From Candidatus Calescibacterium sp. (lineage in GTDB: Bacteria > DRYD01), in NCBI GenBank assembly GCA_025059235.1, contig JANXCV010000002.1, positions 145,498 through 209,497 on the forward strand: a DNA stretch of 64,000 nt, in the 5' to 3' direction. The notes beneath the pieces were generated by a model, which worked only from the letters and a program-made list of their open reading frames with translations, did not search any database and had not been told where the DNA came from. Shown in pieces: positions 14,039 through 60,748 of this stretch (the stretch's first letter is position 1; each line of letters opens with the position of its first letter). The position numbers were made by a program, and so were the translations under genes.

Positions 14039-15055
14039 TTATATTTTTTGTTTTCTTAGTTCTGCTGCTGATACTTCTGGTGGGATCGGATTTATATATG
14101 TACCTGTTCCCCATTCAAAACCAGCTACCTTTGTTAGCCTTGGGATTATCTCTATATGCCAGTGAAAATATTCTTTGCTGTTTGAGTTAGGGGGTGCAGT
14201 GTGAAGCATCATGTTGAATGGAGGGTTATCTAGCAATAGGTAAATTTTAGATAATACTACTTTTAGGGTTTCTGCTAAGTCTACAACATGATTCTTATCT
14301 ATATCTTCAAAACGGTGAGAATGTTTTTTAGGTATAATCCATGTTTCGAACGGAAAAACTGATGCGAATGGACAAAAAGCTATGAACGAATTATTTTCAA
14401 ACACTATTCTATCTTGATGTCCTCTTTCTTGGGTTATTATATCACAGAATATACATCTATCTTTGAGATCGTAGTATTCTTTCGCGTTATCTATCTCATT
14501 TTTTATCACGGAAGGTATTATGGGTGTTGCTATGATTTGTGAGTGTGGGTGGAAAAGAGAAGCTCCGGCATCCTTACCATGATTTTTAAATATAATAACA
14601 TACTTTATCCTGGGATCTTTTGATAGCTCTATTATTCTATCTCTATAAGCCCAGATTATTTCTTGGTAAAGTTCTTGGGATGTTGTTATTGAAACGGCCA
14701 TATGGTCTTCGCCTTCTATAAGAACTTCATGATATCCTATACCGTTCATAAAATCGTATATTCCAATTCCTTTTTTATCTAGATCTCCATCTGGTTTGAG
14801 AGCTGGAAACTTGTTGTTTACTACTCTTATCCACCAACCTGGTCCGTTTGCCAGCGTACCTGGTTTTCTGTAGGCTAATACTTCTGGAGGGGTCATGTAC
14901 TCATTACCTGGACAGAAAGGACACTTCGATGGGTCCCCAGGGTCATCTTTTATTCTCTGCTTAAAATCATTCGGTCTTGCTGCTCTTTCTGTAGCTATTA
15001 TCACCCATCTCTTTAATACTGGATCTTTTCTTAGTTCCGGCATAGCTTTCCCCAC
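14039..15055 (-). CDS. galT: Galactose-1-phosphate uridylyltransferase (class I GalT)
   Basis: CPFCPGNE zinc motif and FHPHSQIIA active-site HPH motif; duplicated HIT-like halves. Confidence 0.75.
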   Translation of the reverse strand: MGKAMPELRKDPVLKRWVIIATERAARPNDFKQRIKDDPGDPSKCPFCPGNEYMTPPEVLAYRKPGTLANGPGWWIRVVNNKFPALKPDGDLDKKGIGIYDFMNGIGYHEVLIEGEDHMAVSITTSQELYQEIIWAYRDRIIELSKDPRIKYVIIFKNHGKDAGASLFHPHSQIIATPIIPSVIKNEIDNAKEYYDLKDRCIFCDIITQERGHQDRIVFENNSFIAFCPFASVFPFETWIIPKKHSHRFEDIDKNHVVDLAETLKVVLSKIYLLLDNPPFNMMLHTAPPNSNSKEYFHWHIEIIPRLTKVAGFEWGTGTYINPIPPEVSAAELRKQKI

Positions 15056-15106
15056 AAATTACAGATGTCTTTCATAATAATTAGATCAATTTTTTACTTT
15101 TCCTCT

Positions 15107-16603
15107 TTAAGAATTAAATTCTTTTTCTATGAAGTAAACGATTTTGTTATTTGCTATAAACTTTTCTTGTAATCCCGATATGGAACCAAATTTTTTGAAG
15201 TCCTCATCCCTAACGATAGGTAAACCAAACAATAAATCATCTAGTTTTATTCTGTAAAAATTATTTATATAGTGATTCAAAATCTTGAAATTTAATTTTT
15301 TGCCTTCTAACATGATTTTCTGAAGTGTAAGCAAGAATTCTATACATAGTATTATACAACAAAAGTAAACTGCTTTTATTAACTTTCGAGAATTATTTTC
15401 GCTATAACTTACCATGTCTTCCTGATGCAAACTAACTGGAAAATTTTCGATACTCGTAGGATAACATAAGTTTTTTAATTCTGTTAGGATATGAGAAGCA
15501 AGGTATTGACTTATCATAAACCCACTGTTTAGACCTTCTTCTTTGGTAAGGAAGCTGGGATTTAGTATATGATTCATTCTTTGAAAGGAAATATTTGAAA
15601 TTTGAAAAATATGAACTGCTAGATGATCACACATCGTAGATATCGTATTACCGTGAAAATTTCCGGCTGAAATAAAATCATCATCTATAATCAAAGGATT
15701 GTCAGTGTTGCTTTTCAATTCACTATCTGCGAAATGAAAACATAATTCATACATTCCGTAAATGCTTTCAAATATCTGGGGATAGCACCTATATGAATAG
15801 GGAGCTTGTAATGGGTAATTATTACTCTGTCTTATTTCTAGCTTTTCTATTATACTATTTAGATCATCTATGGCTTTGCTGAAATACTTACTACTCTTGG
15901 TATTTTTCAGCTTTTTATGAAAATGTGAAAGGTTTATATTGTTTGCTACTGAACTCAAGACCAATACAAAATTAGAAAATTCTATCAATTTGGAAATAAG
16001 GAACAAACCGACAGAAAAGTTTGCCAATGAATATGAAGTACCATTGATGAAAGATATTGACTCTTTTGTTTTGGGTGAGTAGCTTTCAAGAACTTTTAGG
16101 AAAATATGGGATAAAGGGATTAAATCTCCGCTTGCACCTACCGAAGTCCAACAAGGAATTTCTGGTAGATCTTTATTTTCTAGCATTTTCACAAGATGAA
16201 GTATTAAGTCTAAACTAACACCACTATACCCTATCGACATCTGTCTTAATCTGATCAAAATGGTTAAGAATACGATCAACTTGCTTACAGGTTTGCCATA
16301 ACCAGCGCTATGAGAGTAGATCAAGTTATATTGTAATTTTTCCAGATCGTTAGATGATATAATTCTATCGAATAATTTACCGAAGCCGGTGTTTATCCCG
16401 TATACTGGTCTGTTTATTCTGTCTACTTTTTTTCTTACTTCACTTATCTTATTCTTTAGACTTTCAGATATTTCTATACGTATTTCCGGAATTTCAAGAT
16501 ACTCGAAATATTTGTGAATTATTTTTGTAATCTCTTGGATGTCTAGTTTATCAAGTTCAACTCTGATAGATTCTTTACTATCTTGAATGGTTTTTTCTGC
16601 CAT
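15107..16603 (-). CDS. hutH: Aromatic amino acid ammonia-lyase family protein (histidine ammonia-lyase-like)
   Basis: GFGKL N-terminal motif and VGASGDLIPLSHI, the Ala-Ser-Gly MIO-forming triad context. The start overlaps the upstream gene by 61 nt, so the true start may be later. Confidence 0.6.
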   Translation of the reverse strand: MAEKTIQDSKESIRVELDKLDIQEITKIIHKYFEYLEIPEIRIEISESLKNKISEVRKKVDRINRPVYGINTGFGKLFDRIISSNDLEKLQYNLIYSHSAGYGKPVSKLIVFLTILIRLRQMSIGYSGVSLDLILHLVKMLENKDLPEIPCWTSVGASGDLIPLSHIFLKVLESYSPKTKESISFINGTSYSLANFSVGLFLISKLIEFSNFVLVLSSVANNINLSHFHKKLKNTKSSKYFSKAIDDLNSIIEKLEIRQSNNYPLQAPYSYRCYPQIFESIYGMYELCFHFADSELKSNTDNPLIIDDDFISAGNFHGNTISTMCDHLAVHIFQISNISFQRMNHILNPSFLTKEEGLNSGFMISQYLASHILTELKNLCYPTSIENFPVSLHQEDMVSYSENNSRKLIKAVYFCCIILCIEFLLTLQKIMLEGKKLNFKILNHYINNFYRIKLDDLLFGLPIVRDEDFKKFGSISGLQEKFIANNKIVYFIEKEFNS

Positions 16604-47604: not shown

Positions 47605-49020
47605 ATGGAACTTTTGCTAGCCCGCATACACTTTGCGATGGCTGCTACTTTCCATTTCATATTCCCTCCAGTAACAATAGGACTATCACTTCTTATCCTC
47701 ATATTTCAAACTCTCTACCTACTCAAGGGAAAGGAGGTATACAACGAAATATCAAAGCTACTTGTTAAGATACTAGCCATCATTTTTGTAGTAGGTGTTA
47801 TAACAGGTTTCACGCTTTCGTTTGCTTTCGGAATGTACTGGGCAAAATTTTCAAAAATAGCCGCTGATCTAATAGGAATCACAATCACAGCAGAGGGAGT
47901 ATTTGCATTCTTCCTGGAAGGAGTCTTTCTCGGATTATTACTTTTTGGACAAAATAGAATTCCAAAAACAATGTATTGGTTCTCTTCTCTGATGGTATTC
48001 CTTGGTACTCATTTATCTGCGTTCTTTATCCTTGCTACTAACAGTTGGATGCAAACACCAGCAGGACATGAGATAATAAGAAACGCAGCAGGGCAAATAG
48101 ATAAGATCATAATAGTTAACTGGTTCGAAGCAATTTTCAATCCTTCTACCATTGCAAGAATGCTTCATACCACTATCGCTTGTTGGATAACCGCTTCCCT
48201 TATTACCTCAGCAATTGGAGCATATTATCTTCTTTCCAGAAAGAATATAGATCTCGGACTGATGATTTTTAGAGTATCATTCATAGTCTTTGCTTTGTCT
48301 GCTTTTTCGCAATTTTTAACGGGACATATGCAAGCTATGGTAGCTTACAAATACCAACCTGCAAAGGTTGCAGCTTTTGAAGCAATCTGGGATACTCAGC
48401 GAGGCCCAAATATACCTATGTCTATCATAGCTATCATCGATGAAAAAAATCAAAGAAACATTATAAATATAGAGGTACCTTTCCTAAATTCTCTTCTGTA
48501 CGGAATCGAATTCTTTCCACCCCACTTTGATCTGAACATAGAAATTAAAGGAATAAAAGAATTTGTAAAGAAACTCGAAGATGGAACAGTAGTGAAAGAA
48601 CATCCTCCGGTTGCAATAACTTACTATACGTTTAGAATAATGATCTTCTTAGGAACATTCTTTGCAATTCTTGCTTTAATAGGTTTATATATGCTATACA
48701 AGAATAAACTTGATAACGTAAAATTCTTGAAACTAGTTTTATACTCCTGGCCATTACCGTTTATTTCTAATACTGCAGGATGGTACACAGCAGAAATAGG
48801 AAGACAACCATACATAATCTACGGAGTATTGAAAACAAAAGACGCAATTACACCATCTCTAAATACTTCTAATGTACTGCTTACCATAATTGTATTACTT
48901 GCTCTCTATCTATTCTTAACTTATATTGCTTACCAACTGATTACAAAGATTATAAAGGAACACGGTAATGAAACTGAAAAAGCTGAAATTCTATCTTCTG
49001 AACCAGTGAAGGAGGTATAA
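47605..49020 (+). CDS. cydA: Cytochrome bd ubiquinol oxidase subunit I
   Basis: N-terminal LLARIHFAMAATFHFIFPPVTIGL, the Q-loop, and 9 TM helices. Confidence 0.85.
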   Translation: MELLLARIHFAMAATFHFIFPPVTIGLSLLILIFQTLYLLKGKEVYNEISKLLVKILAIIFVVGVITGFTLSFAFGMYWAKFSKIAADLIGITITAEGVFAFFLEGVFLGLLLFGQNRIPKTMYWFSSLMVFLGTHLSAFFILATNSWMQTPAGHEIIRNAAGQIDKIIIVNWFEAIFNPSTIARMLHTTIACWITASLITSAIGAYYLLSRKNIDLGLMIFRVSFIVFALSAFSQFLTGHMQAMVAYKYQPAKVAAFEAIWDTQRGPNIPMSIIAIIDEKNQRNIINIEVPFLNSLLYGIEFFPPHFDLNIEIKGIKEFVKKLEDGTVVKEHPPVAITYYTFRIMIFLGTFFAILALIGLYMLYKNKLDNVKFLKLVLYSWPLPFISNTAGWYTAEIGRQPYIIYGVLKTKDAITPSLNTSNVLLTIIVLLALYLFLTYIAYQLITKIIKEHGNETEKAEILSSEPVKEV

Positions 49021-49024
49021 TAAA

Positions 49025-50008
49025 ATGGAAAACTACTTAACACAACATATACTTTATATAGTTATAGGAGTTGCTTTTTTTGCCTATACTTTTTTGTATG
49101 GACCGATATTGGGGAGCGGATCAGTTTTCCCGGTTATAGCTAAAAACGATACTGAAAGAAAAGCAATTTTGCACTCGGTAGCTCCATTTTGGGACGGGGC
49201 AGGAGTTTGGTTGATTGCGGCAGCAGTCGTGATGTGGGGGGCTTTCCCCCAATCTTATGCCACTCTCTTTGGGGGATTTTTCCTGGCCCTGTTTATCGTC
49301 CTGTTTTTCTTACTAATTTCAATCGCATCTATCGAGCTTTATCTAAAGGATGAAAAGAGAAAAGAGATGTGGAAAAATGCTTACTTTATAGGAAATCTAA
49401 TACCTTCTTTACTTTTCGGTGTTGCTCTTGGAAATGTCATCATGGGCATACCTTTGAACGAGGACTTATGGTATACAGGAAATTTCTTCACTCTACTCAG
49501 ACCGTATGCTTTACTTGTTGGCTTGCTTGGTTTAAGCTTGTTAATAACCCATGCAATGTCATACGTTTTACTGAAAGTTTCTGGTGATGTCGTTGAAAGA
49601 GCAAAAAATGTACAAAAAATTTCTAATTCCTCTTTCTTGTTACTTTTTGTAATCTTTGTATTCTGGACTCACCATATGTTTAAGGATCTGTCTATTTGGT
49701 ATTGGGTAGTTGCTGGTATCATTGTTCTACTTTCTGTAGCTATCTTCTTTGTAAAGGAAAATCACTTTTGGATTTCTACTGCTATGCTACTTTTTTCATG
49801 GGCTCTTGTTGGCTTGATTCAATACCCTCATATTATTAGAGGATTAGGTGAATATAGCATAACTTTATTCAATAACTCATCCTCTGCCTTAACTCAATAT
49901 GCAATGATTATCATCCTTGTAATAGGTCTACCGTTTGTTATAGCATACACCTACTACAGCTACTTCGTGTTTCGCGGTAAGTTTTCTGGTAAGGAACAAA
50001 TGTACTAA
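49025..50008 (+). CDS. cydB: Cytochrome bd ubiquinol oxidase subunit II
   Basis: Immediately downstream of cydA; polytopic; FWDGAGVWLIA motif. Confidence 0.8.
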   Translation: MENYLTQHILYIVIGVAFFAYTFLYGPILGSGSVFPVIAKNDTERKAILHSVAPFWDGAGVWLIAAAVVMWGAFPQSYATLFGGFFLALFIVLFFLLISIASIELYLKDEKRKEMWKNAYFIGNLIPSLLFGVALGNVIMGIPLNEDLWYTGNFFTLLRPYALLVGLLGLSLLITHAMSYVLLKVSGDVVERAKNVQKISNSSFLLLFVIFVFWTHHMFKDLSIWYWVVAGIIVLLSVAIFFVKENHFWISTAMLLFSWALVGLIQYPHIIRGLGEYSITLFNNSSSALTQYAMIIILVIGLPFVIAYTYYSYFVFRGKFSGKEQMY

Positions 50009-53248: not shown

Positions 53249-54031
53249 ATGAAGATCTATTTTTTATCTATCTTTCCCGATGTAGTTTTTTCTATTTCTC
53301 GAGGTATTTCGATGATAAAGAGAGCTTTGAAGAAAGGATTGATTTCATTGGAAGTTGTTAACATAAGAGATTTTGCTAAGGGAAAACAGAAACAGGTAGA
53401 TGATTACGTATTTGGATTAGGTAAAGGGATGATGTTAAGACTGGATGTAGTATTAAGAGCTTTAAATTTCGCTAGAAATAATTTAAACAATCCGTATGTT
53501 ATATTGGCTTCTCCTCGTGGACAGGTTTTAAATAAACATATGATCTGTGATCTAGCAAAGATGGATGAATTTATTTTCATTTGTCCTAATTATGAGGGAA
53601 TAGACGATAGAATTCTTGGATTCATAAATGAGGAAATATCGATTGGTAATTATGTAATTAGTTCTGGAGAGTTAGCTTCTTTTGTAATCCTCGAATCGAT
53701 TATTAGATTCAAATTTTCAAATGGATCTCTGATACAAAGGGAAAATCTTTTTGATGATAGTTTTAATTATATGGGAATGGATTTTTTGTTAGAGCCTTTA
53801 CAATATACTCGTCCACGAGAAGTAGAAATAAATAATAGGTTGATTAAAGTAGATAGTTTGCTTTATTCAGGGGATCATGAGAAAATAAAAAATTTCTTAC
53901 TTAGAGAAGCTATTAGTATGACAATATATAAGAAGCCTGATTTATTTAAGTTTTTTCTTAATAAGTATTCTGAAAAGATAGATAAGAGGGTATTGTATGA
54001 TGCTGTGATGGATTCGATAATACCGTCATGA
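53249..54031 (+). CDS. trmD: tRNA (guanine37-N1)-methyltransferase
   Basis: MKIYFLSIFPDV, ICPNYEGIDDRI and ISIGNYVISSGE motifs of the TrmD SPOUT fold. Confidence 0.8.
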   Translation: MKIYFLSIFPDVVFSISRGISMIKRALKKGLISLEVVNIRDFAKGKQKQVDDYVFGLGKGMMLRLDVVLRALNFARNNLNNPYVILASPRGQVLNKHMICDLAKMDEFIFICPNYEGIDDRILGFINEEISIGNYVISSGELASFVILESIIRFKFSNGSLIQRENLFDDSFNYMGMDFLLEPLQYTRPREVEINNRLIKVDSLLYSGDHEKIKNFLLREAISMTIYKKPDLFKFFLNKYSEKIDKRVLYDAVMDSIIPS

Positions 54032-55626
54032 TATTTTTTTTAGTAGGTGCTAGATTTGCCTTGGAAATTCCCACAGAAAATATTCCAGAATTCAATCCTA
54101 ATAAAATCTATGTTATAAAATTTAAAAATATTTATTTTCTTGGATTTTTTATGAAAACTAAAAAAAACCTGGAAAGAAAGTTAATAAATGTGAGAAAAAT
54201 TAATTTTATTGATTTTTTGATAATACCGAATTGGCAACTTATTCTATCAGATTTTGAGAGCTTGATTAACAGTTTGCCTAATGAAAAAAAAAGTGTTTTT
54301 AGGTATATGTACTTGGGACTAGAAAAGATTGCACTTACTCTTGTAAAATATGAGGACATACTTAAAATATACGTTAACGGCATCATTGAGAATTATTCTT
54401 TTAACAAAAAGATTCAGATAGAATCAGTAGAACATAACTACCTTGATAAACGGACTTGCTTTTCCATAAAAGCTTCAAAAAATATGCTTAAATCTGATAA
54501 CTTAAAGAAAATTATAAGGTATTTCCAGAAAAAATTAGGAAAGAGAATCAAGTATGAAATTGGATATCGTTTTGAGTTTTCGGAAAATGTTTTTACCCAA
54601 GAGGTGTGTAAAAATAGTTATAAGATTTTTGATTTTATTCATAAAAAACAAAAGCTAACTGATAATACAAGTACTTTGGTTTTAGTTCATGATTTGGAAA
54701 AGATTATATCACGGAATGGAAGTTTGCAGTACGATGGAAACGTATGGATAAATAATCTTGTTGCAAATAATCAAAGAAGGAATTATATTTTTCCGCTATG
54801 GGGCATAATTTTATCGGCATTTTTTGAAAATGTGGTTTTAGATTATTTCCCCGGTTTTTCTATGTTCTATAATTTCTTACATGAAACAAAATCTAACGTG
54901 ATTTTCCATTCTTTTCTTCCAGTCTATGGTAATTATAAAAATTATTTACTTGCGAATAAACACGTGTACTTGCAAGATTTTGAAAAAATAAGACAGAAAT
55001 TAGTTTTTGAAAATTTCTCATTGAAGGATTTGAAGAATTATTTGGCTACCATAGTCAATGATGCGGAAGTAGTATTTTATTCTTTTTATGATGCATTTTA
55101 CAAATTTTACTGTGGGTATTGTGGTAATATTCCTTTTTGTGAAATGTGTAAAAGTAAACTAACTGTTTCTAGACAAAATCTAGATGATATAAACAAAATT
55201 AAACTAGTATGTAAGAAGTGTAAGGTGAAATATGATACCTTTAATTGTCAATACTGTGGGAAATACCTTTGGAAACTATGGAAGAGGAAATACAAAGAAG
55301 AGATGAGCAACTATAACACGATATTCATTAATTTTTTGCCTTCTGATTTTTCCTCTTACTTGAAAGGTAAAGATTATATCGTTGTATTAGATTATTTTTC
55401 TTTGTATAAACCATTTGTTTTAAAAGAGCTCAATATATGGTATTTATTGTTCAAGATAATTAACGAATTGAATGTAAAAAATATATTTTTTGTTAACGCT
55501 GAAGAATTTAATGTTTTTGAGTATTTTCATAATTTTGTGTATTCTGATAGAAAGGATGTGATTATTGATAGATTGGTTGATTTGATAGAGATGGAGAGAA
55601 AGATCATGTCTTTATCATGGATGTAG
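54028..55626 (+). CDS. Hypothetical 532-aa protein with C-proximal tandem CxxC zinc-ribbon motifs
   Basis: CGYCGN...CEMCK...CKKCK...CQYCGK cluster; no helicase or NTPase motifs. Confidence 0.45.
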   Translation: MIFFLVGARFALEIPTENIPEFNPNKIYVIKFKNIYFLGFFMKTKKNLERKLINVRKINFIDFLIIPNWQLILSDFESLINSLPNEKKSVFRYMYLGLEKIALTLVKYEDILKIYVNGIIENYSFNKKIQIESVEHNYLDKRTCFSIKASKNMLKSDNLKKIIRYFQKKLGKRIKYEIGYRFEFSENVFTQEVCKNSYKIFDFIHKKQKLTDNTSTLVLVHDLEKIISRNGSLQYDGNVWINNLVANNQRRNYIFPLWGIILSAFFENVVLDYFPGFSMFYNFLHETKSNVIFHSFLPVYGNYKNYLLANKHVYLQDFEKIRQKLVFENFSLKDLKNYLATIVNDAEVVFYSFYDAFYKFYCGYCGNIPFCEMCKSKLTVSRQNLDDINKIKLVCKKCKVKYDTFNCQYCGKYLWKLWKRKYKEEMSNYNTIFINFLPSDFSSYLKGKDYIVVLDYFSLYKPFVLKELNIWYLLFKIINELNVKNIFFVNAEEFNVFEYFHNFVYSDRKDVIIDRLVDLIEMERKIMSLSWM

Positions 55627-57562
55627 TTTGTATGATTTGTTCTATGTTAGGGTTTATAATTTTTTGTTTGAATATTTTGTCATGGATGTTCAGGAAGTAA
55701 TGGAATTCGGTATGATTTTCTTTTTTTTGGCAGCAGGCACCAAGAGGGAAGGAACATCCGAGGTTAAGTAATCCCATGAAGTACCTTTCTAGGTTTGTTT
55801 CTTCTCTGTATGTTGGGTTGTCGAGTTTTCGCATTAGTTCTGTTAAGAAACTTTGTTTACGTGTTTGTATTGCTATTGCTCCTTGGCCTGGTGCGGGAAC
55901 CATTTCATCTATTGGGAAAATGTAAGATATGAGTTTTTCTAGGTTTAATCTTTTGATTGCTGCGAGAGCAAGAATAATTCCGTCATATTGACCTTCAAAA
56001 AGTTTTCTTATGCGTGTATCTACGTTTCCCCTTAGATCTTTTACGATTATATCTTTTCTGAGAATTTCTAGTTGTTTTCTTCTACGTAAACTGGAGGTAC
56101 CGATTACTGAATTGGGTTTCATTTCCCAGAAATTCTTACCATCTCGTGTTATTAGGACGTCATTCGGTTCTGATCTTAAAGGTATAGCTGCTACTTCCAG
56201 ATAGTTATTGATTTGATAGGGAATGTCTTTTAAGCTATGTACGGCTATATCTATTTCTTCTCTTATCAGAGCTTCTTCCAGTTCTTTTACGAATGAGTTA
56301 GAGGTGTATATGTTTTTATCTCCGCTTGTTTTTATTATTTCGGTGGAGAATTCAAATTCTGGGAAGTTAAGTTTAAGTAGACTAAGTATTTCCTCTGTCT
56401 GAGCTAAAGCTAGTCTTGATCCTCTTGTACCTACAATTATTTTGCGTTTCTGACTTTGAATGTATAATTCTTTTATCTTCTTAATTGGTTCTTCTAGGGT
56501 TTGATTTACTATTTTTTGGTTTATATATTTGAAAAATTCTTTTATTTCTTTTTCATCTTCAGTTTTGATGATAGACATTAGTTCCTTGTAGTATTGGTTT
56601 ATTTTTTCTTCAGCTATTTCTAGAGGAATTTTATAGAATTTCTTAATAATTGCTTTTAAATCTAATATTATGATTTTGTCAATAAATTCATTGACTTTTT
56701 GGTTGAGGAAATCGTGTATTATCAATTCATCGGAATATACATTTGTTTGTTTTTCTCTTAAACCATCTAGATCGATATAGTTGCTAGTTATTTGAGAATC
56801 GATACTTCGGGGAACTGATAGATCAAATATGATTGATCCATAGGGTATACGTGATTTCTTATCTATTATAGGTTCTGAAGTATTGGTAGCTGATATTATG
56901 ATACATTTGTCTTGAATTTCACCTAATTTTTGGTGGATCAGTTTTTTAGGATAGGCTTTCTTATTGTTGTCGGAAAAAATAAGAATATTCTTGAAATGAT
57001 TTTTAATTATTTTGTGGATTGACTTATTGAGTATTCCATAACCTATCAGGATTACTGGTATTTCACTGGGTAAGTTTTTTATTCTTTGCCATACTATATT
57101 TGCAAGGTTCTGTTTTTGTCTTTTTATTTTGGGTAATATGCTGGTATGAAATTCTTTATGAACGGTAAATGAGAAGTTAATCATTTGATCAAGTATTTGT
57201 CCGACGAAGCTTTTTTGACTTTTGTAGTATTGCTTTATTTGATGTATAATATCTGTTTCTGCAAATACTTGTGATTCTAGACCGCAGGCTACTTTGAAGA
57301 AGTGTTTTATAGCTTCTATTCCTTTTCTTGATTTGCAATGAACTTTTGGAAACAGAATGTTCTGGATTTCTGTTGGTTCTCCATCTATAAAGTATATTGA
57401 TACCCTATTACATGTAGATAGAATGAAGAAGGATTCAGTTAATTTTTGTATTTTGTTGCCGATTTCAACTATCTTGTCTATAGATATGAAATACTTCTCT
57501 CTTATGTCAAGAGGAAAATCTTTGTCTATTTCTAAGTTGTGTATTTTATGGATTGCTACCAT
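55604..57562 (-). CDS. hemA-hemC: Apparent in-frame fusion of glutamyl-tRNA reductase (HemA, aa 1 to about 365) and hydroxymethylbilane synthase (HemC, aa about 395 to 652)
   Basis: HemA motifs LSTCNRVSIY and GLESQV...IIHQIK, plus the NADP-domain layout. HemC motifs VGTRGSRLALAQT, TSGDK, IDIAVHSLKDIP, GTSSLRRRKQL, APGQGAIAI, and the cofactor Cys in LNLGCSFPLGACC. Single uninterrupted 1959-nt ORF. Confidence 0.65.
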   Translation of the reverse strand: MVAIHKIHNLEIDKDFPLDIREKYFISIDKIVEIGNKIQKLTESFFILSTCNRVSIYFIDGEPTEIQNILFPKVHCKSRKGIEAIKHFFKVACGLESQVFAETDIIHQIKQYYKSQKSFVGQILDQMINFSFTVHKEFHTSILPKIKRQKQNLANIVWQRIKNLPSEIPVILIGYGILNKSIHKIIKNHFKNILIFSDNNKKAYPKKLIHQKLGEIQDKCIIISATNTSEPIIDKKSRIPYGSIIFDLSVPRSIDSQITSNYIDLDGLREKQTNVYSDELIIHDFLNQKVNEFIDKIIILDLKAIIKKFYKIPLEIAEEKINQYYKELMSIIKTEDEKEIKEFFKYINQKIVNQTLEEPIKKIKELYIQSQKRKIIVGTRGSRLALAQTEEILSLLKLNFPEFEFSTEIIKTSGDKNIYTSNSFVKELEEALIREEIDIAVHSLKDIPYQINNYLEVAAIPLRSEPNDVLITRDGKNFWEMKPNSVIGTSSLRRRKQLEILRKDIIVKDLRGNVDTRIRKLFEGQYDGIILALAAIKRLNLEKLISYIFPIDEMVPAPGQGAIAIQTRKQSFLTELMRKLDNPTYREETNLERYFMGLLNLGCSFPLGACCQKKENHTEFHYFLNIHDKIFKQKIINPNIEQIIQTTSMIKT

Positions 57563-57749: not shown

Positions 57750-58325
57750 ATGCCTTCATATATGTGGATAAGGGAGTTTGATTTAGAGAAAAGTAAAGAG
57801 AAAATAGCTAAATTCTATACAGATAAAATTAAATTTTCTTCATATCCTTTGCGTGACGAAGAGAAGGATGCAATCATGAAAAACATAGTATCAAATTTTC
57901 CCAGGAATGCTTATATAGTATCAACTGATAACACCAGAGTATTAATAACTCAAAATGATAAGGTAAAGAGTGAATTATCCAGTGTTGGAAATGACATCAG
58001 TAAATTAAAACCTGGATCTCTACTATACCAAGCTATATCTACTGCTTACAACATAGAAAAAAACATTTCTAGATGGATGAAAACTATGAATATAAATAGG
58101 GTAGATTTATTAAGAGGAGAAGATATAAAGGTGGATATGTTGGGAAGTATTTATACCAAGGATTTCATGGAAAATGAATTAGATAACTCTTATGGCTCTT
58201 CAATTGTCTTTGGTACCTTTATTTCCCACAAAGACAATAAAGTTTACAACACTGCTCAAGACATTGATATTGTTATTCGTAAAGTAAGCAATCTGATTTT
58301 GAATAATCTAAGGCCTATGTATTAG
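57750..58325 (+). CDS. Hypothetical protein
   Basis: 191-aa ORF; no recognisable motif. Confidence 0.4.
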   Translation: MPSYMWIREFDLEKSKEKIAKFYTDKIKFSSYPLRDEEKDAIMKNIVSNFPRNAYIVSTDNTRVLITQNDKVKSELSSVGNDISKLKPGSLLYQAISTAYNIEKNISRWMKTMNINRVDLLRGEDIKVDMLGSIYTKDFMENELDNSYGSSIVFGTFISHKDNKVYNTAQDIDIVIRKVSNLILNNLRPMY

Positions 58326-58492
58326 TATAACATTTTCGATTTTGAAAGCCGAGCTATTCGCGAAGCTTTCAGTGATATTAATGCTTTTTTACATGCTGCA
58401 ATGGATAGGAATGTAAAGGTTAAGCCAGAACATCTAGATAAACCAAATCCCATCTCTTCAATCGGTGAATACATAGGTTAGCTTCCCCAACT

Positions 58493-58912
58493 ATGCCAAA
58501 ATTCTACAAATCTATAATCATTGCCGATATCATGTATAATAATTCTAAATTGTCAAAATACCTTATCAAAGCTGCAAATGAAAGCAAATTATTAAACACT
58601 TCTATAGAGCAAATTCAAAACGAAATTAGCAATTCCAGATCTCTAGATGTATCAGAAATAAAGCAAGTAATAGAAAAAATTAGAGAAGAAGAAAGAAAAG
58701 AAATAATGGAAAGATTATCCAAATCCAACTCAAAGCTATCTGAAGCAGAGAAAGAAGAATTAATAAGAACGGAATTATTAATGAGATTACGAGCAATCGG
58801 AGCACCCGAACCAACAAAAACGATAACAAGGACATTGCAAGAACTTATAAAAGCCAAATTTCCTGAAGTTTATAATCCTAATGTATGGACGTTAAAATCT
58901 ACCCAGGAATAA
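58493..58912 (+). CDS. Hypothetical K/E-rich coiled-coil protein
   Basis: 139-aa ORF. Confidence 0.35.
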   Translation: MPKFYKSIIIADIMYNNSKLSKYLIKAANESKLLNTSIEQIQNEISNSRSLDVSEIKQVIEKIREEERKEIMERLSKSNSKLSEAEKEELIRTELLMRLRAIGAPEPTKTITRTLQELIKAKFPEVYNPNVWTLKSTQE

Positions 58913-59109
58913 ATAACCACCTGCTGACTATAGAAGCCACATATGTTTATAGAAGAGATCAAGAATATGGAACTATATACGGTGGGGTTTTATTAGTATT
59001 CGACGATAATCTGAATCTAGTTTACTCACGCATAGAAAAACCATCTATTGAAAGGGTGGCCAAGACGAAAGATTACATGGATTTCGTAGAATATAATATA
59101 AATTATTGA
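58885..59109 (+). CDS. Hypothetical small protein
   Basis: 74-aa ORF overlapping the upstream ORF. Confidence 0.2.
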   Translation: MDVKIYPGINNHLLTIEATYVYRRDQEYGTIYGGVLLVFDDNLNLVYSRIEKPSIERVAKTKDYMDFVEYNINY

Positions 59110-59379
59110 GGGATTAATGTTGGATAATGATAATATAAATCAAGGTTAGAAAGAGATGAGGGATGAAGTGGGAGTGAGTTTTTCTCTCCCATCTCATTTT
59201 TTGCTCAATTTTTAGGTCTGTTGTTACGTCCAGTATTAGTTTGGTTTAAACATGTTTTTCGGGGCTTTGTGATGATTTAGATATATAAGTTGCTCTGATG
59301 TCAGAGTTAGTTGAGTATACAGGTTGCTTCTTATTATACAGAAGAGTCTCAGTGGTTCTTGTAGTATTTAAATAATATA

Positions 59380-59949
59380 GTGAAAAGTACATGGTTTTTC
59401 TTTGAAGTAGCTATATTTTTTCTGATCTTATTTGTTTTATTTATATTTTTCAATATGTTTTTCAAGGAGATTCAGATGGAGGAGGGTATATATAAAAGCA
59501 AGACTGTTCTACCTTCCTTTATGGGTAATTCTGTCATGGTAACTTTGGGCAAAGATAGAGATAAGATGAAATTTTTTTTCGGAATATCCGAAGCAAGAAT
59601 GACTGTAAAAAAAGATAATCTCAATATCTATGTAGACATTAACCTAGAAAAATTATGCAACTATGATATTTCTTGGTATAAGTATCTGTTGGTCAAGAAG
59701 AATATTAGTGAAAATAGTATTTTAAGTGTACATGTAAGCAACAGTAATTCGGAAATTTTTTATGATGGTAAAATATATAAATCCTATTGTGATTTGCAGT
59801 TGAAACCTTATGAATTAATGGGTAAGAAATTTGTTCGTATTATTGCTAGCATTTATTTAACTAATAAAGGGTTTTTGGACGATGAAAAGAAAATATATAT
59901 AGAAAATATAAAGCTTAGACTCAATTTACTAAAAGTTAGAAATGAGTAA
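59380..59949 (+). CDS. Hypothetical protein with an N-terminal TM helix
   Basis: 189-aa ORF. Confidence 0.4.
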   Translation: MKSTWFFFEVAIFFLILFVLFIFFNMFFKEIQMEEGIYKSKTVLPSFMGNSVMVTLGKDRDKMKFFFGISEARMTVKKDNLNIYVDINLEKLCNYDISWYKYLLVKKNISENSILSVHVSNSNSEIFYDGKIYKSYCDLQLKPYELMGKKFVRIIASIYLTNKGFLDDEKKIYIENIKLRLNLLKVRNE

Positions 59950-60748
59950 AGTTGAAAAGAACAAAGTGCAGAGAAATAAATATGACAAAAAGACGAAAAA
60001 GCAAGCAGAAAAAAAAGTCGAAAAAAAATCTGGGAAAATAGATGGTAAAACCGTAACCAATGAGCTAATATTCAAGTTTTTCTTATCAAATCCATACTTT
60101 AGGAATTTAGACAAGAAGACATTGGTGTCTGTTAGTGATAAGTCCAAAATCAGAAATATAAGAAAAACTCTTAAAATATCCAAAGATGTCATAGATCAGA
60201 AAAAATATAGATTTCTTATGAATAATTACTGTTTTATAAAAGAGAATTGGGTTTTTACCTTAGTAGAAAACAATTATAAGAAGGTAATAGTTGATGTTTT
60301 ATACCCTGGCCAGGTAATAGATCTTAGTATCCTAGATGATTTGCCTGAATCCAAATTAGTTATTCCACGAGGAACTGTGTTAATACTCGTACCATTTGAT
60401 CCAGAAATATCTCAAAAAATTCAAGAATATAAACAATATGTAGCTAAACAAAAGCTAAGATCATTTTATGTTGACTTGATAAATTACAGATCGCTTGATA
60501 GTATAAATAGATTAATATATTTTCTTGCAAAATATTCTAAATCAAACTCTATAATGAATTCCTCTGATGAACTTTTATTTCACAACAAAAAGTTAATATC
60601 ATACATAACAGGTAATTCTCACGAGGTAATAGTAAAAAACTTTAAAAAGCTTCAAAAAATGAATTATATCCACCTAAACAACGGAAAAATAAAAATAAAC
60701 TTACAGAAGATAGAGCAATGGATCAAAAATTCAAGGATAATAATATGA
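59942..60748 (+). CDS. Crp/Fnr-like transcriptional regulator (cNMP-binding-like barrel plus C-terminal HTH) with a Lys-rich N-terminal extension
   Basis: C-terminal ISYITGNSHEVIVKNFKKLQKMNYIHLNNGKIKI resembles the Crp-family HTH (...LA..lG.sretvsR.L..L...G.I.....I.I). A beta-barrel-like region lies upstream. Confidence 0.45.
   Translation: MSKVEKNKVQRNKYDKKTKKQAEKKVEKKSGKIDGKTVTNELIFKFFLSNPYFRNLDKKTLVSVSDKSKIRNIRKTLKISKDVIDQKKYRFLMNNYCFIKENWVFTLVENNYKKVIVDVLYPGQVIDLSILDDLPESKLVIPRGTVLILVPFDPEISQKIQEYKQYVAKQKLRSFYVDLINYRSLDSINRLIYFLAKYSKSNSIMNSSDELLFHNKKLISYITGNSHEVIVKNFKKLQKMNYIHLNNGKIKINLQKIEQWIKNSRIII

Follow-up and report, generated by a model that had tools for sequence, protein, structure and literature searches.

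Within the 64,000-nucleotide stretch of the hot-spring bacterium Candidatus Calescibacterium sp. analysed here (hereafter the window, meaning the whole stretch), a gene on the minus strand at 55604..57562 joins two enzymes of tetrapyrrole synthesis in a single polypeptide, namely glutamyl-tRNA reductase (GluTR, HemA), the first of the pathway, and the later-acting hydroxymethylbilane synthase (porphobilinogen deaminase, HemC). A first-pass annotation had read the locus as such a HemA-HemC fusion and had claimed a single uninterrupted open reading frame (ORF). The ORF list and the DNA agree with that claim, giving one complete frame of 652 amino acids (aa) plus stop with an ATG start, identical to the protein that we call P0001. 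All of the motifs that it quoted are present in the translation (LSTCNRVSIY, GLESQV..I..QIK, VGTRGSRLALAQT, IDIAVHSLKDIP, GTSSLRRRKQL and GCSFPLGA). The HemA half extends over aa 1-370 and the HemC half over aa 373-652. A promoter and terminator scan over the gene returned counts equal to the shuffled expectation and is uninformative.

Domain organisation of the fused gene

From its N-terminus, the protein opens with a GluTR catalytic domain (aa 14-141, 57140..57523, minus strand as for all segments of this gene), delimited by Pfam GlutR_N (PF05201, aa 14-141, 86.5 bits against a cut-off of 27) and by alignment to the structure 1gpj (M. kandleri GluTR). This domain holds Cys51, Arg53, His87, Ser97, Glu102 and Gln108, a set that is conserved among the fused homologues; the Cys51 codon was read directly in the DNA at 57410-57412. 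It is followed by a shortened NAD(P)H-binding Rossmann-like domain (aa ~153-270, 56753..57106), which has five strands in the AlphaFold model and a fold predicted with high confidence, with a Shikimate_DH-type NAD(P) domain match just below the cut-off (PF01488, aa 170-260, 23.5 against 24.3 bits). The GluTR dimerisation domain (aa 276-370, 56453..56737) comprises three long helices, modelled at 276-323, 325-334 and 337-370, and scores just above threshold (GlutR_dimer, PF00745, aa 286-367, 23.4 against 22.9 bits).

The fusion junction (aa 365-380, KELYIQSQKRKIIVGT, 56423..56470) was located from the DNA, the alignment and the model. Beyond it lie HemC domains 1 and 2 (aa 375-570, 55853..56440; Porphobil_deam, PF01379, aa 375-570, 220 bits against 22.1) and HemC domain 3 (aa 583-652, 55607..55816), which carries the cofactor Cys603 (codon read at 55754-55756) and is placed by the invariance of that residue and by Foldseek; its Pfam match is weak (Porphobil_deamC, PF03900, aa 590-617, 15 bits against 26).

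The HemC half

The C-terminal half scores well above the cut-off of the curated equivalog model for hydroxymethylbilane synthase (TIGR00212, 272.9 against 164, over aa 375-630), and its sequence matches solved porphobilinogen deaminases in the PDB to ~1e-47. Superposed by Foldseek on bacterial and plant deaminases, the modelled half gives target-normalised template modelling (TM) scores of 0.84-0.88 and root mean square deviations of 1.9-2.4 Å over 274-290 columns; for 4mlq and 1pda the scores are 0.86-0.88 over 276-290 aligned columns. Invariant columns in the 61-sequence alignment (A1) are Arg380, Asp446, Ser491, Arg493, Arg494, Arg517 and Gln560, whose Asp and Arg positions we take to be Arg11, Asp84, Arg131, Arg132 and Arg149 of the E. 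coli enzyme. Cys603, presumably E. coli Cys242 and thus the attachment point of the dipyrromethane cofactor, is invariant in 61 of the 61 aligned sequences.

Domain 3 is divergent in sequence, as its low PF03900 score shows, yet it is predicted to be complete. A truncated third domain, which that score had raised as a possibility, was rejected because the model covers whole solved deaminases. On profile and model together, the HemC half is a complete, orthodox hydroxymethylbilane synthase. Like standalone HemC (1pda, 4mlq) it passes TIGR00212, keeps the invariant Arg, Asp and Cys residues and adopts the three-domain fold at ~2 Å; it differs from them in the divergent domain 3, with PF03900 under its cut-off, and in an N-terminus that runs directly on from a GluTR helix.

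The HemA half

The first-pass assignment of both halves stood up, although not equally well against the curated models. For the N-terminal half, TIGR01035 aligns over aa 14-370 with high significance (E = 9e-29), while its score stays below the equivalog cut-off (see below). A profile built from the HemA half of the clade matched only GluTR structures, nearly at full length and across all three domains: Arabidopsis GluTR1 (4n7r) over residues 32-427 (E = 5.5e-19) and M. kandleri GluTR (1gpj) over residues 4-377 (E = 2.2e-18). Foldseek aligned the modelled half to 1gpj, 4n7r and 5yjl over 394-422 columns.

Residues expected of a GluTR active site are largely retained. Cys51 aligns with the 1gpj nucleophile (position 48), is invariant in the clade and is retained by every fused homologue. 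In both the clade and its sister clade, T50, C51, R53, G94-L-E-S-Q98, E102, Q108, K110, D247 and P251 do not vary, and the NAD(P)H domain retains the GluTR signature DLSVPRSID. The glutamate-recognition positions, which in E. coli numbering we take to be Thr49, Arg52, Glu54, His99, Ser109 and Glu114, are occupied by Thr50, Arg53, His87, Ser97 and Glu102, with Ser55 at the Glu54 equivalent. In the sister-clade GluTR halves, Asn stands at the position of His87. Two homologues show a single substitution each relative to STCNR (STCYR in P0006, STCNC in P0052); either may reflect a sequencing error or an inactive variant.

Several features weigh against reading this half as a working GluTR. Its TIGR01035 score of 100.6 is under half of the cut-off (209.55), and relatives from the clade and sister clade score 88.3 and 120, whereas other fused lineages score 214-400, above the cut-off. 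The dinucleotide-binding loop reads G174-Y-G176-I-L-N179 instead of GxGxxG/A; strand 2 ends in S197-D198, where GluTRs usually have an Arg ('NRT' or 'SR'); and the alignment shows a deletion of ~16 residues in the Rossmann domain. Finally, the Glu usually found after CNRx, E. coli Glu54, is a Ser (Ser55) here.

Sequence divergence between the two halves is likewise uneven. Members of the clade share 51-65% identity in the HemA half and 62-73% in the HemC half; compared with the sister clade, the two halves reach 31-33% and 57%, respectively. The HemA half therefore evolves fast, and its identity within the clade indicates that it does so under constraint. By sequence and model, the HemA half is a divergent GluTR homologue and not a curated equivalog. 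It shares with standalone GluTRs (1gpj; 4n7r/5yjl) the three-domain layout, the STCNR nucleophile and the GLESQ...E..I..Q.K substrate motif, and differs from them in the GYGILN loop, the deleted Rossmann helix, Ser-Asp in place of the usual Arg, Ser55 in place of Glu, and the HemC domain borne on its C-terminus.

The junction is continuous and conserved

Direct reading of the DNA revealed no stop codon in the junction peptide (...IKKIKELYIQSQKRKIIVGTRGS...), and no in-frame ATG, GTG or TTG in the junction (...KELYIQSQKRKIIVGTRGS...) from which HemC could be translated separately. An AlphaFold2 model of the fused protein, built on 61 sequences, reached a mean predicted local distance difference test (pLDDT) score of 91.9 and a predicted TM (pTM) score of 0.75. 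In this model the halves are joined without a flexible linker: the GluTR helix 337-370 is followed, two residues on, by the HemC strand 373-379. Over P0001-P0006 the junction alignment is gap-free and conserved.

The same frame recurs in independent assemblies and species, as the first-pass annotation had proposed to check. P0001 is present as an identical sequence in three NCBI records (MCS7165305.1, MCX7971663.1 and MDW8195269.1). A second metagenome-assembled genome (MAG; locus L002) encodes the same fused ORF, with a protein 58% identical, among neighbours that match those of the window (TrmD, a POR-family oxidoreductase, RtcB and CydAB). A profile restricted to the HemA half was then run over species-representative genomes. 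It recovered four Calescibacterium-type species whose fused ORFs measure 658-677 aa, together with a sister clade, very AT-rich at 21-23% GC, whose fused ORFs measure 731 and 759 aa; the remainder comprised one locus cut at a contig end and one distant match, an ordinary standalone HemA. Every complete relative found in the genomes of other species has the same fused ORF and a junction without gaps. The fused gene is thereby confirmed as real and not an artefact.

Among the more distant homologues, P0102 (748 aa) has a low-complexity junction rich in Arg, Gly and Pro, typical of a GC-rich gene read out of frame, and is probably a spurious fusion caused by a frameshift. Censuses of the HemA-HemC architecture therefore need a filter for such cases.

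Distribution and operon context

When 1.84 billion representatives were searched exhaustively, 17,470 matches were returned. Among the 150 best representatives (50%-identity clusters), ~19 are of fused length, including some from candidate division WOR-3 and Elusimicrobia, and the window's own clade accounts for one of them. In total, more than 60 fused HemA-HemC proteins were retrieved from several bacterial lineages; HemC-HemD and HemC-CobA-HemD type proteins were also among the matches.

The fused proteins fall into distinct junction types. The window's clade keeps the full dimerisation domain and has no linker, and a ~780-aa type has long linkers. In the Elusimicrobia type (P0038-P0056) and in P0035 the dimerisation domain is deleted, so that HemC nearly adjoins the NADPH domain, and the WOR-3 type (P0015/P0016/P0018) has lost most of it. 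Fused proteins from WOR-3, Elusimicrobia and other uncultured bacteria (e.g., P0015, P0045, P0029, P0049 and P0071) resemble the window's protein in domain order and catalytic motifs, whereas the HemA halves of the other lineages pass the TIGR01035 cut-off and that of the window does not.

In four loci of other lineages the fused gene stands at the head of a hem operon, where it replaces separate hemA and hemC genes. The gene orders are hemAC-hemD-chdC-hemL in a MAG (L006), hemAC-hemD-hemB-chdC-?-hemL-hemE-hemH in WOR-3 (L007), hemAC-hemD-hemB-radical SAM-hemL-hemE-amine-oxidase-type (HemY-like) on a metagenome contig (L008), and hemAC-hemD-hemE-hemF-hemB-hemL on a Bacteroidota-like contig (L009). 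In the Elusimicrobia locus L005, a HemX-like Cytochrom_C_asm gene lies immediately upstream of the fused gene.

The window's lineage differs in this respect too, its fused gene lying outside any hem operon. With HemB, HemD, HemL, HemE, HemH, ChdC and HemX probes taken from the hem loci of L005-L007, tblastn found no other hem gene within 10 kb of the fused gene in the Calescibacterium-type and sister-clade loci. Nor were hemL, hemB, hemD, hemE, hemH or chdC found in the window, where the probes gave matches of E > 0.1 only, in line with the first-pass statement that it holds no hemL, hemB or hemD.

Two features of the operon loci are recorded here in their own right. The unassigned gene between chdC and hemL in the WOR-3 operon (L007, 14138-14611, plus strand) encodes a 157-aa membrane protein with only weak CopD (E = 5e-4) and DUF2269 (2e-3) matches. 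Because no coproporphyrinogen oxidase is recognisable in this operon, the 157-aa ORF is a candidate for the missing step. Inside the hem operon of L009, the gene for HemB (ALAD) is split into neighbouring ORFs of 165 aa and 160 aa (14798-15774), probably through a frameshift or an assembly error.

Phylogeny of the two halves

Neighbour-joining trees were computed for each half separately with 100 bootstraps, and only local groups were supported. The Calescibacterium clade received bootstrap values of 90 (HemC half) and 100 (HemA half), and its union with the sister clade 100 and 98, respectively. When the WOR-3 group is added, the values are 21 for the HemC half and 66 for the HemA half. The two trees agree, with the WOR-3 group as nearest relative in each, and this agreement suggests a single fused ancestor for the Calescibacterium, sister-clade and WOR-3 set; deeper nodes are without support. 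The sister-clade loci (L014, L015 and L016; P0007-P0013) have a GC content of 21-23%, and one of these genomes was deposited as 'Deltaproteobacteria bacterium', a label that seems doubtful.

Neighbouring genes in the window

The window also encodes cytochrome bd oxidase, as first noted from the sequence: Pfam labels place cydA at 47605..49020 and cydB at 49025..50008, which implies a need for haem. A 532-aa ORF on the plus strand (54028..55626) converges on the fused gene, the two sharing 23 bp at the 3' end of the latter. The protein has a Cys-rich stretch with several CxxC pairs (CGYCGN..CEMCKSK...CKKCKVKY..CQYCGK), and gave no Pfam match; a 503-aa counterpart lies at the equivalent place in L002. 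On the other side, between the fused gene and a TPR protein, the plus strand carries small ORFs of 191, 139, 74, 189 and 268 aa (57750..60748), and Pfam returned no significant match for those of 191, 139, 189 and 268 aa. Since L002 has fewer small ORFs in this interval, the stretch is variable.

Discussion

We consider it likely that the gene is genuine, has been inherited vertically and encodes two enzymes of the haem pathway, GluTR and HemC, in one polypeptide. One ORF, two folds recognised by prediction, retained catalytic residues, conservation across species and genomic context all point in this direction, and the protein is probably bifunctional, both activities being deduced from sequence and model. 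The GluTR half would convert Glu-tRNA(Glu) to glutamate-1-semialdehyde by way of a Cys51 thioester that is then reduced with hydride from NAD(P)H, and the HemC half would join four porphobilinogen units on the dipyrromethane cofactor at Cys603. As HemL and HemB act between these two steps, the fusion could not hand a product straight between its two active sites. The first-pass annotation had likewise judged channelling unlikely and thought a regulatory or stoichiometric coupling more plausible, which is a reasonable view.

An error of assembly or sequencing, in which a missed stop codon or a frameshift merged two ordinary neighbouring genes, is one alternative. Errors of this kind do occur in the same data, P0102 being a probable example, and the authors of a survey of archaeal fusions caution that misassembly may explain some of them (PMC11237513). 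Against this stand the identical sequence in three NCBI records, the same fused ORF in six further species-level genomes, the conserved gap-free junction, the confident model in which helix runs into strand, and the lack of any start codon for a separate HemC; we regard an artefact as extremely improbable. A more serious, though still unlikely, alternative is that only the HemC half is enzymatic, and that the GluTR-like half, its reductase activity lost, now acts in dimerisation, stabilisation or regulation and might bind tRNA(Glu), HemL or haem, with the 5-aminolaevulinic acid (ALA) precursor supplied by another gene. The low TIGR01035 scores throughout the clade and sister clade relative to other fused lineages, the non-canonical NAD(P)H loop, the Rossmann deletion, the Glu to Ser55 exchange and the Asn at the His87 position in the sister clade are all in its favour, as are the much faster evolution of the HemA half and the NCBI pipeline name, which is that of HemC alone. 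However, Cys51, Arg53, Ser97, Glu102, Gln108 and the DLxxPR motif are invariant in both clades, which would be unexpected of a decaying domain, and the model predicts each of the three GluTR domains confidently. In addition, one published Calescamantes reconstruction, from an assembly ~63% complete, lists no other hemA.

The physical join itself could also matter functionally. Loading of HemC with porphobilinogen or cofactor might feed back on GluTR, or the fusion might nucleate a heat-adapted complex of HemL, HemB and HemD that would protect labile intermediates. HemC seated on the GluTR dimerisation helices would then be a built-in flux sensor or the core of a heat-stable assembly, a form of control over the haem pathway unlike the known haem, HemX, FLU or GluBP mechanisms. 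The join is rigid and lacks a linker, it persists both in the sister clade and among Calescibacterium-type species whose proteins have diverged to 56-69% identity, and a complex between GluTR and HemL is well established. The host, moreover, lives at ~80 °C (PMC4791363; PMC11696919), and proximity of HemC and HemD lowered the spontaneous loss of hydroxymethylbilane in an engineered strain (PMC11943725). Yet the fusion is also found in WOR-3, Elusimicrobia and Bacteroidota-like contigs, with no indication here of hot habitats, and the deletion of the dimerisation domain in some fused lineages means that no single shared quaternary structure is implied. We hold both the feedback and the complex-forming version of this idea, sensor and core alike, to be improbable.

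Returning to the bifunctional reading, the HemA-then-HemC order and the operon contexts suggest, as the most likely origin of the fusion, that the stop codon separating hemA from hemC was lost while the two were neighbours in a hem operon. The fused gene now stands alone in the Calescibacterium lineage, while elsewhere it still heads hem operons. Because the dimerisation helices have been retained and lead into HemC through a rigid connection, we infer a GluTR-type dimer; given the architecture of GluTR dimers, two HemC units would sit at its base and leave the HemL docking face free. HemC can tolerate a partner at its N-terminus, since engineered N-terminal fusions left E. coli HemC working (PMC11943725). 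The probable benefit is fixed 1:1 co-expression and co-stabilisation of the rate-limiting, unstable GluTR, perhaps with a scaffold for a HemL-containing complex; the fusion may instead be nearly neutral. Fused proteins without a dimerisation domain raise the question of whether their GluTR is monomeric, and whether a dimer is needed at all.

The first-pass annotation had stated that no such fusion is described. This holds for the searchable full-text literature, in which we found no natural HemA-HemC fusion, the review of prokaryotic haem synthesis by Dailey et al. 2017 (PMC5312243) lying outside that scope; the architecture itself is not unique, given the proteins retrieved from several bacterial lineages. 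Known tetrapyrrole fusions include HemA-HemB (one Sulfolobus assembly), HemC-CobA-HemD, CobA-HemD, HemC-HemD and HemH-HemQ (CpfC-ChdC) (PMC11237513; PMC13564367). Like these, the fusion described here joins enzymes of the same pathway whose genes are adjacent. Most of them, however, link consecutive steps, whereas those of HemA and HemC are separated by HemL and HemB. HemA-HemC is an undescribed architectural variant of two well-known enzymes, and not a new kind of enzyme, pathway or system; it adds a join of non-consecutive steps to the list of tetrapyrrole-pathway fusions.

Public sources label fused HemA-HemC proteins by a single activity, and P0001 is named 'hydroxymethylbilane synthase [Candidatus Calescibacterium sp.]' at NCBI, after its HemC half only. 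The 2016 reconstruction of Calescamantes-OS (PMC4791363, supplementary Table 4, column T3), whose assembly is only ~63% complete, lists glutamate-1-semialdehyde (GSA) aminotransferase, ALA dehydratase, hydroxymethylbilane synthase and precorrin-2 dehydrogenase as present, and glutamyl-tRNA reductase and uroporphyrinogen-III synthase as absent. Absence of HemA with presence of HemC is the pattern expected if the fused gene was annotated there as HemC alone. The same table shows that HemL and HemB exist in the Calescamantes lineage; its late haem route could depend on siroheme or follow another path.

GluTR is an unstable enzyme that is difficult to work on, and a natural fusion from an organism living at ~80 °C could provide a tractable, possibly stable, form of the enzyme. 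The value of the finding lies mainly in annotation and pathway reconstruction. Where these proteins are named for one enzyme, reconstructions miss hemA, or hemC in the case of Elusimicrobia, and recognising the HemA-HemC fusion closes an apparent gap in the pathway in several uncultured phyla.

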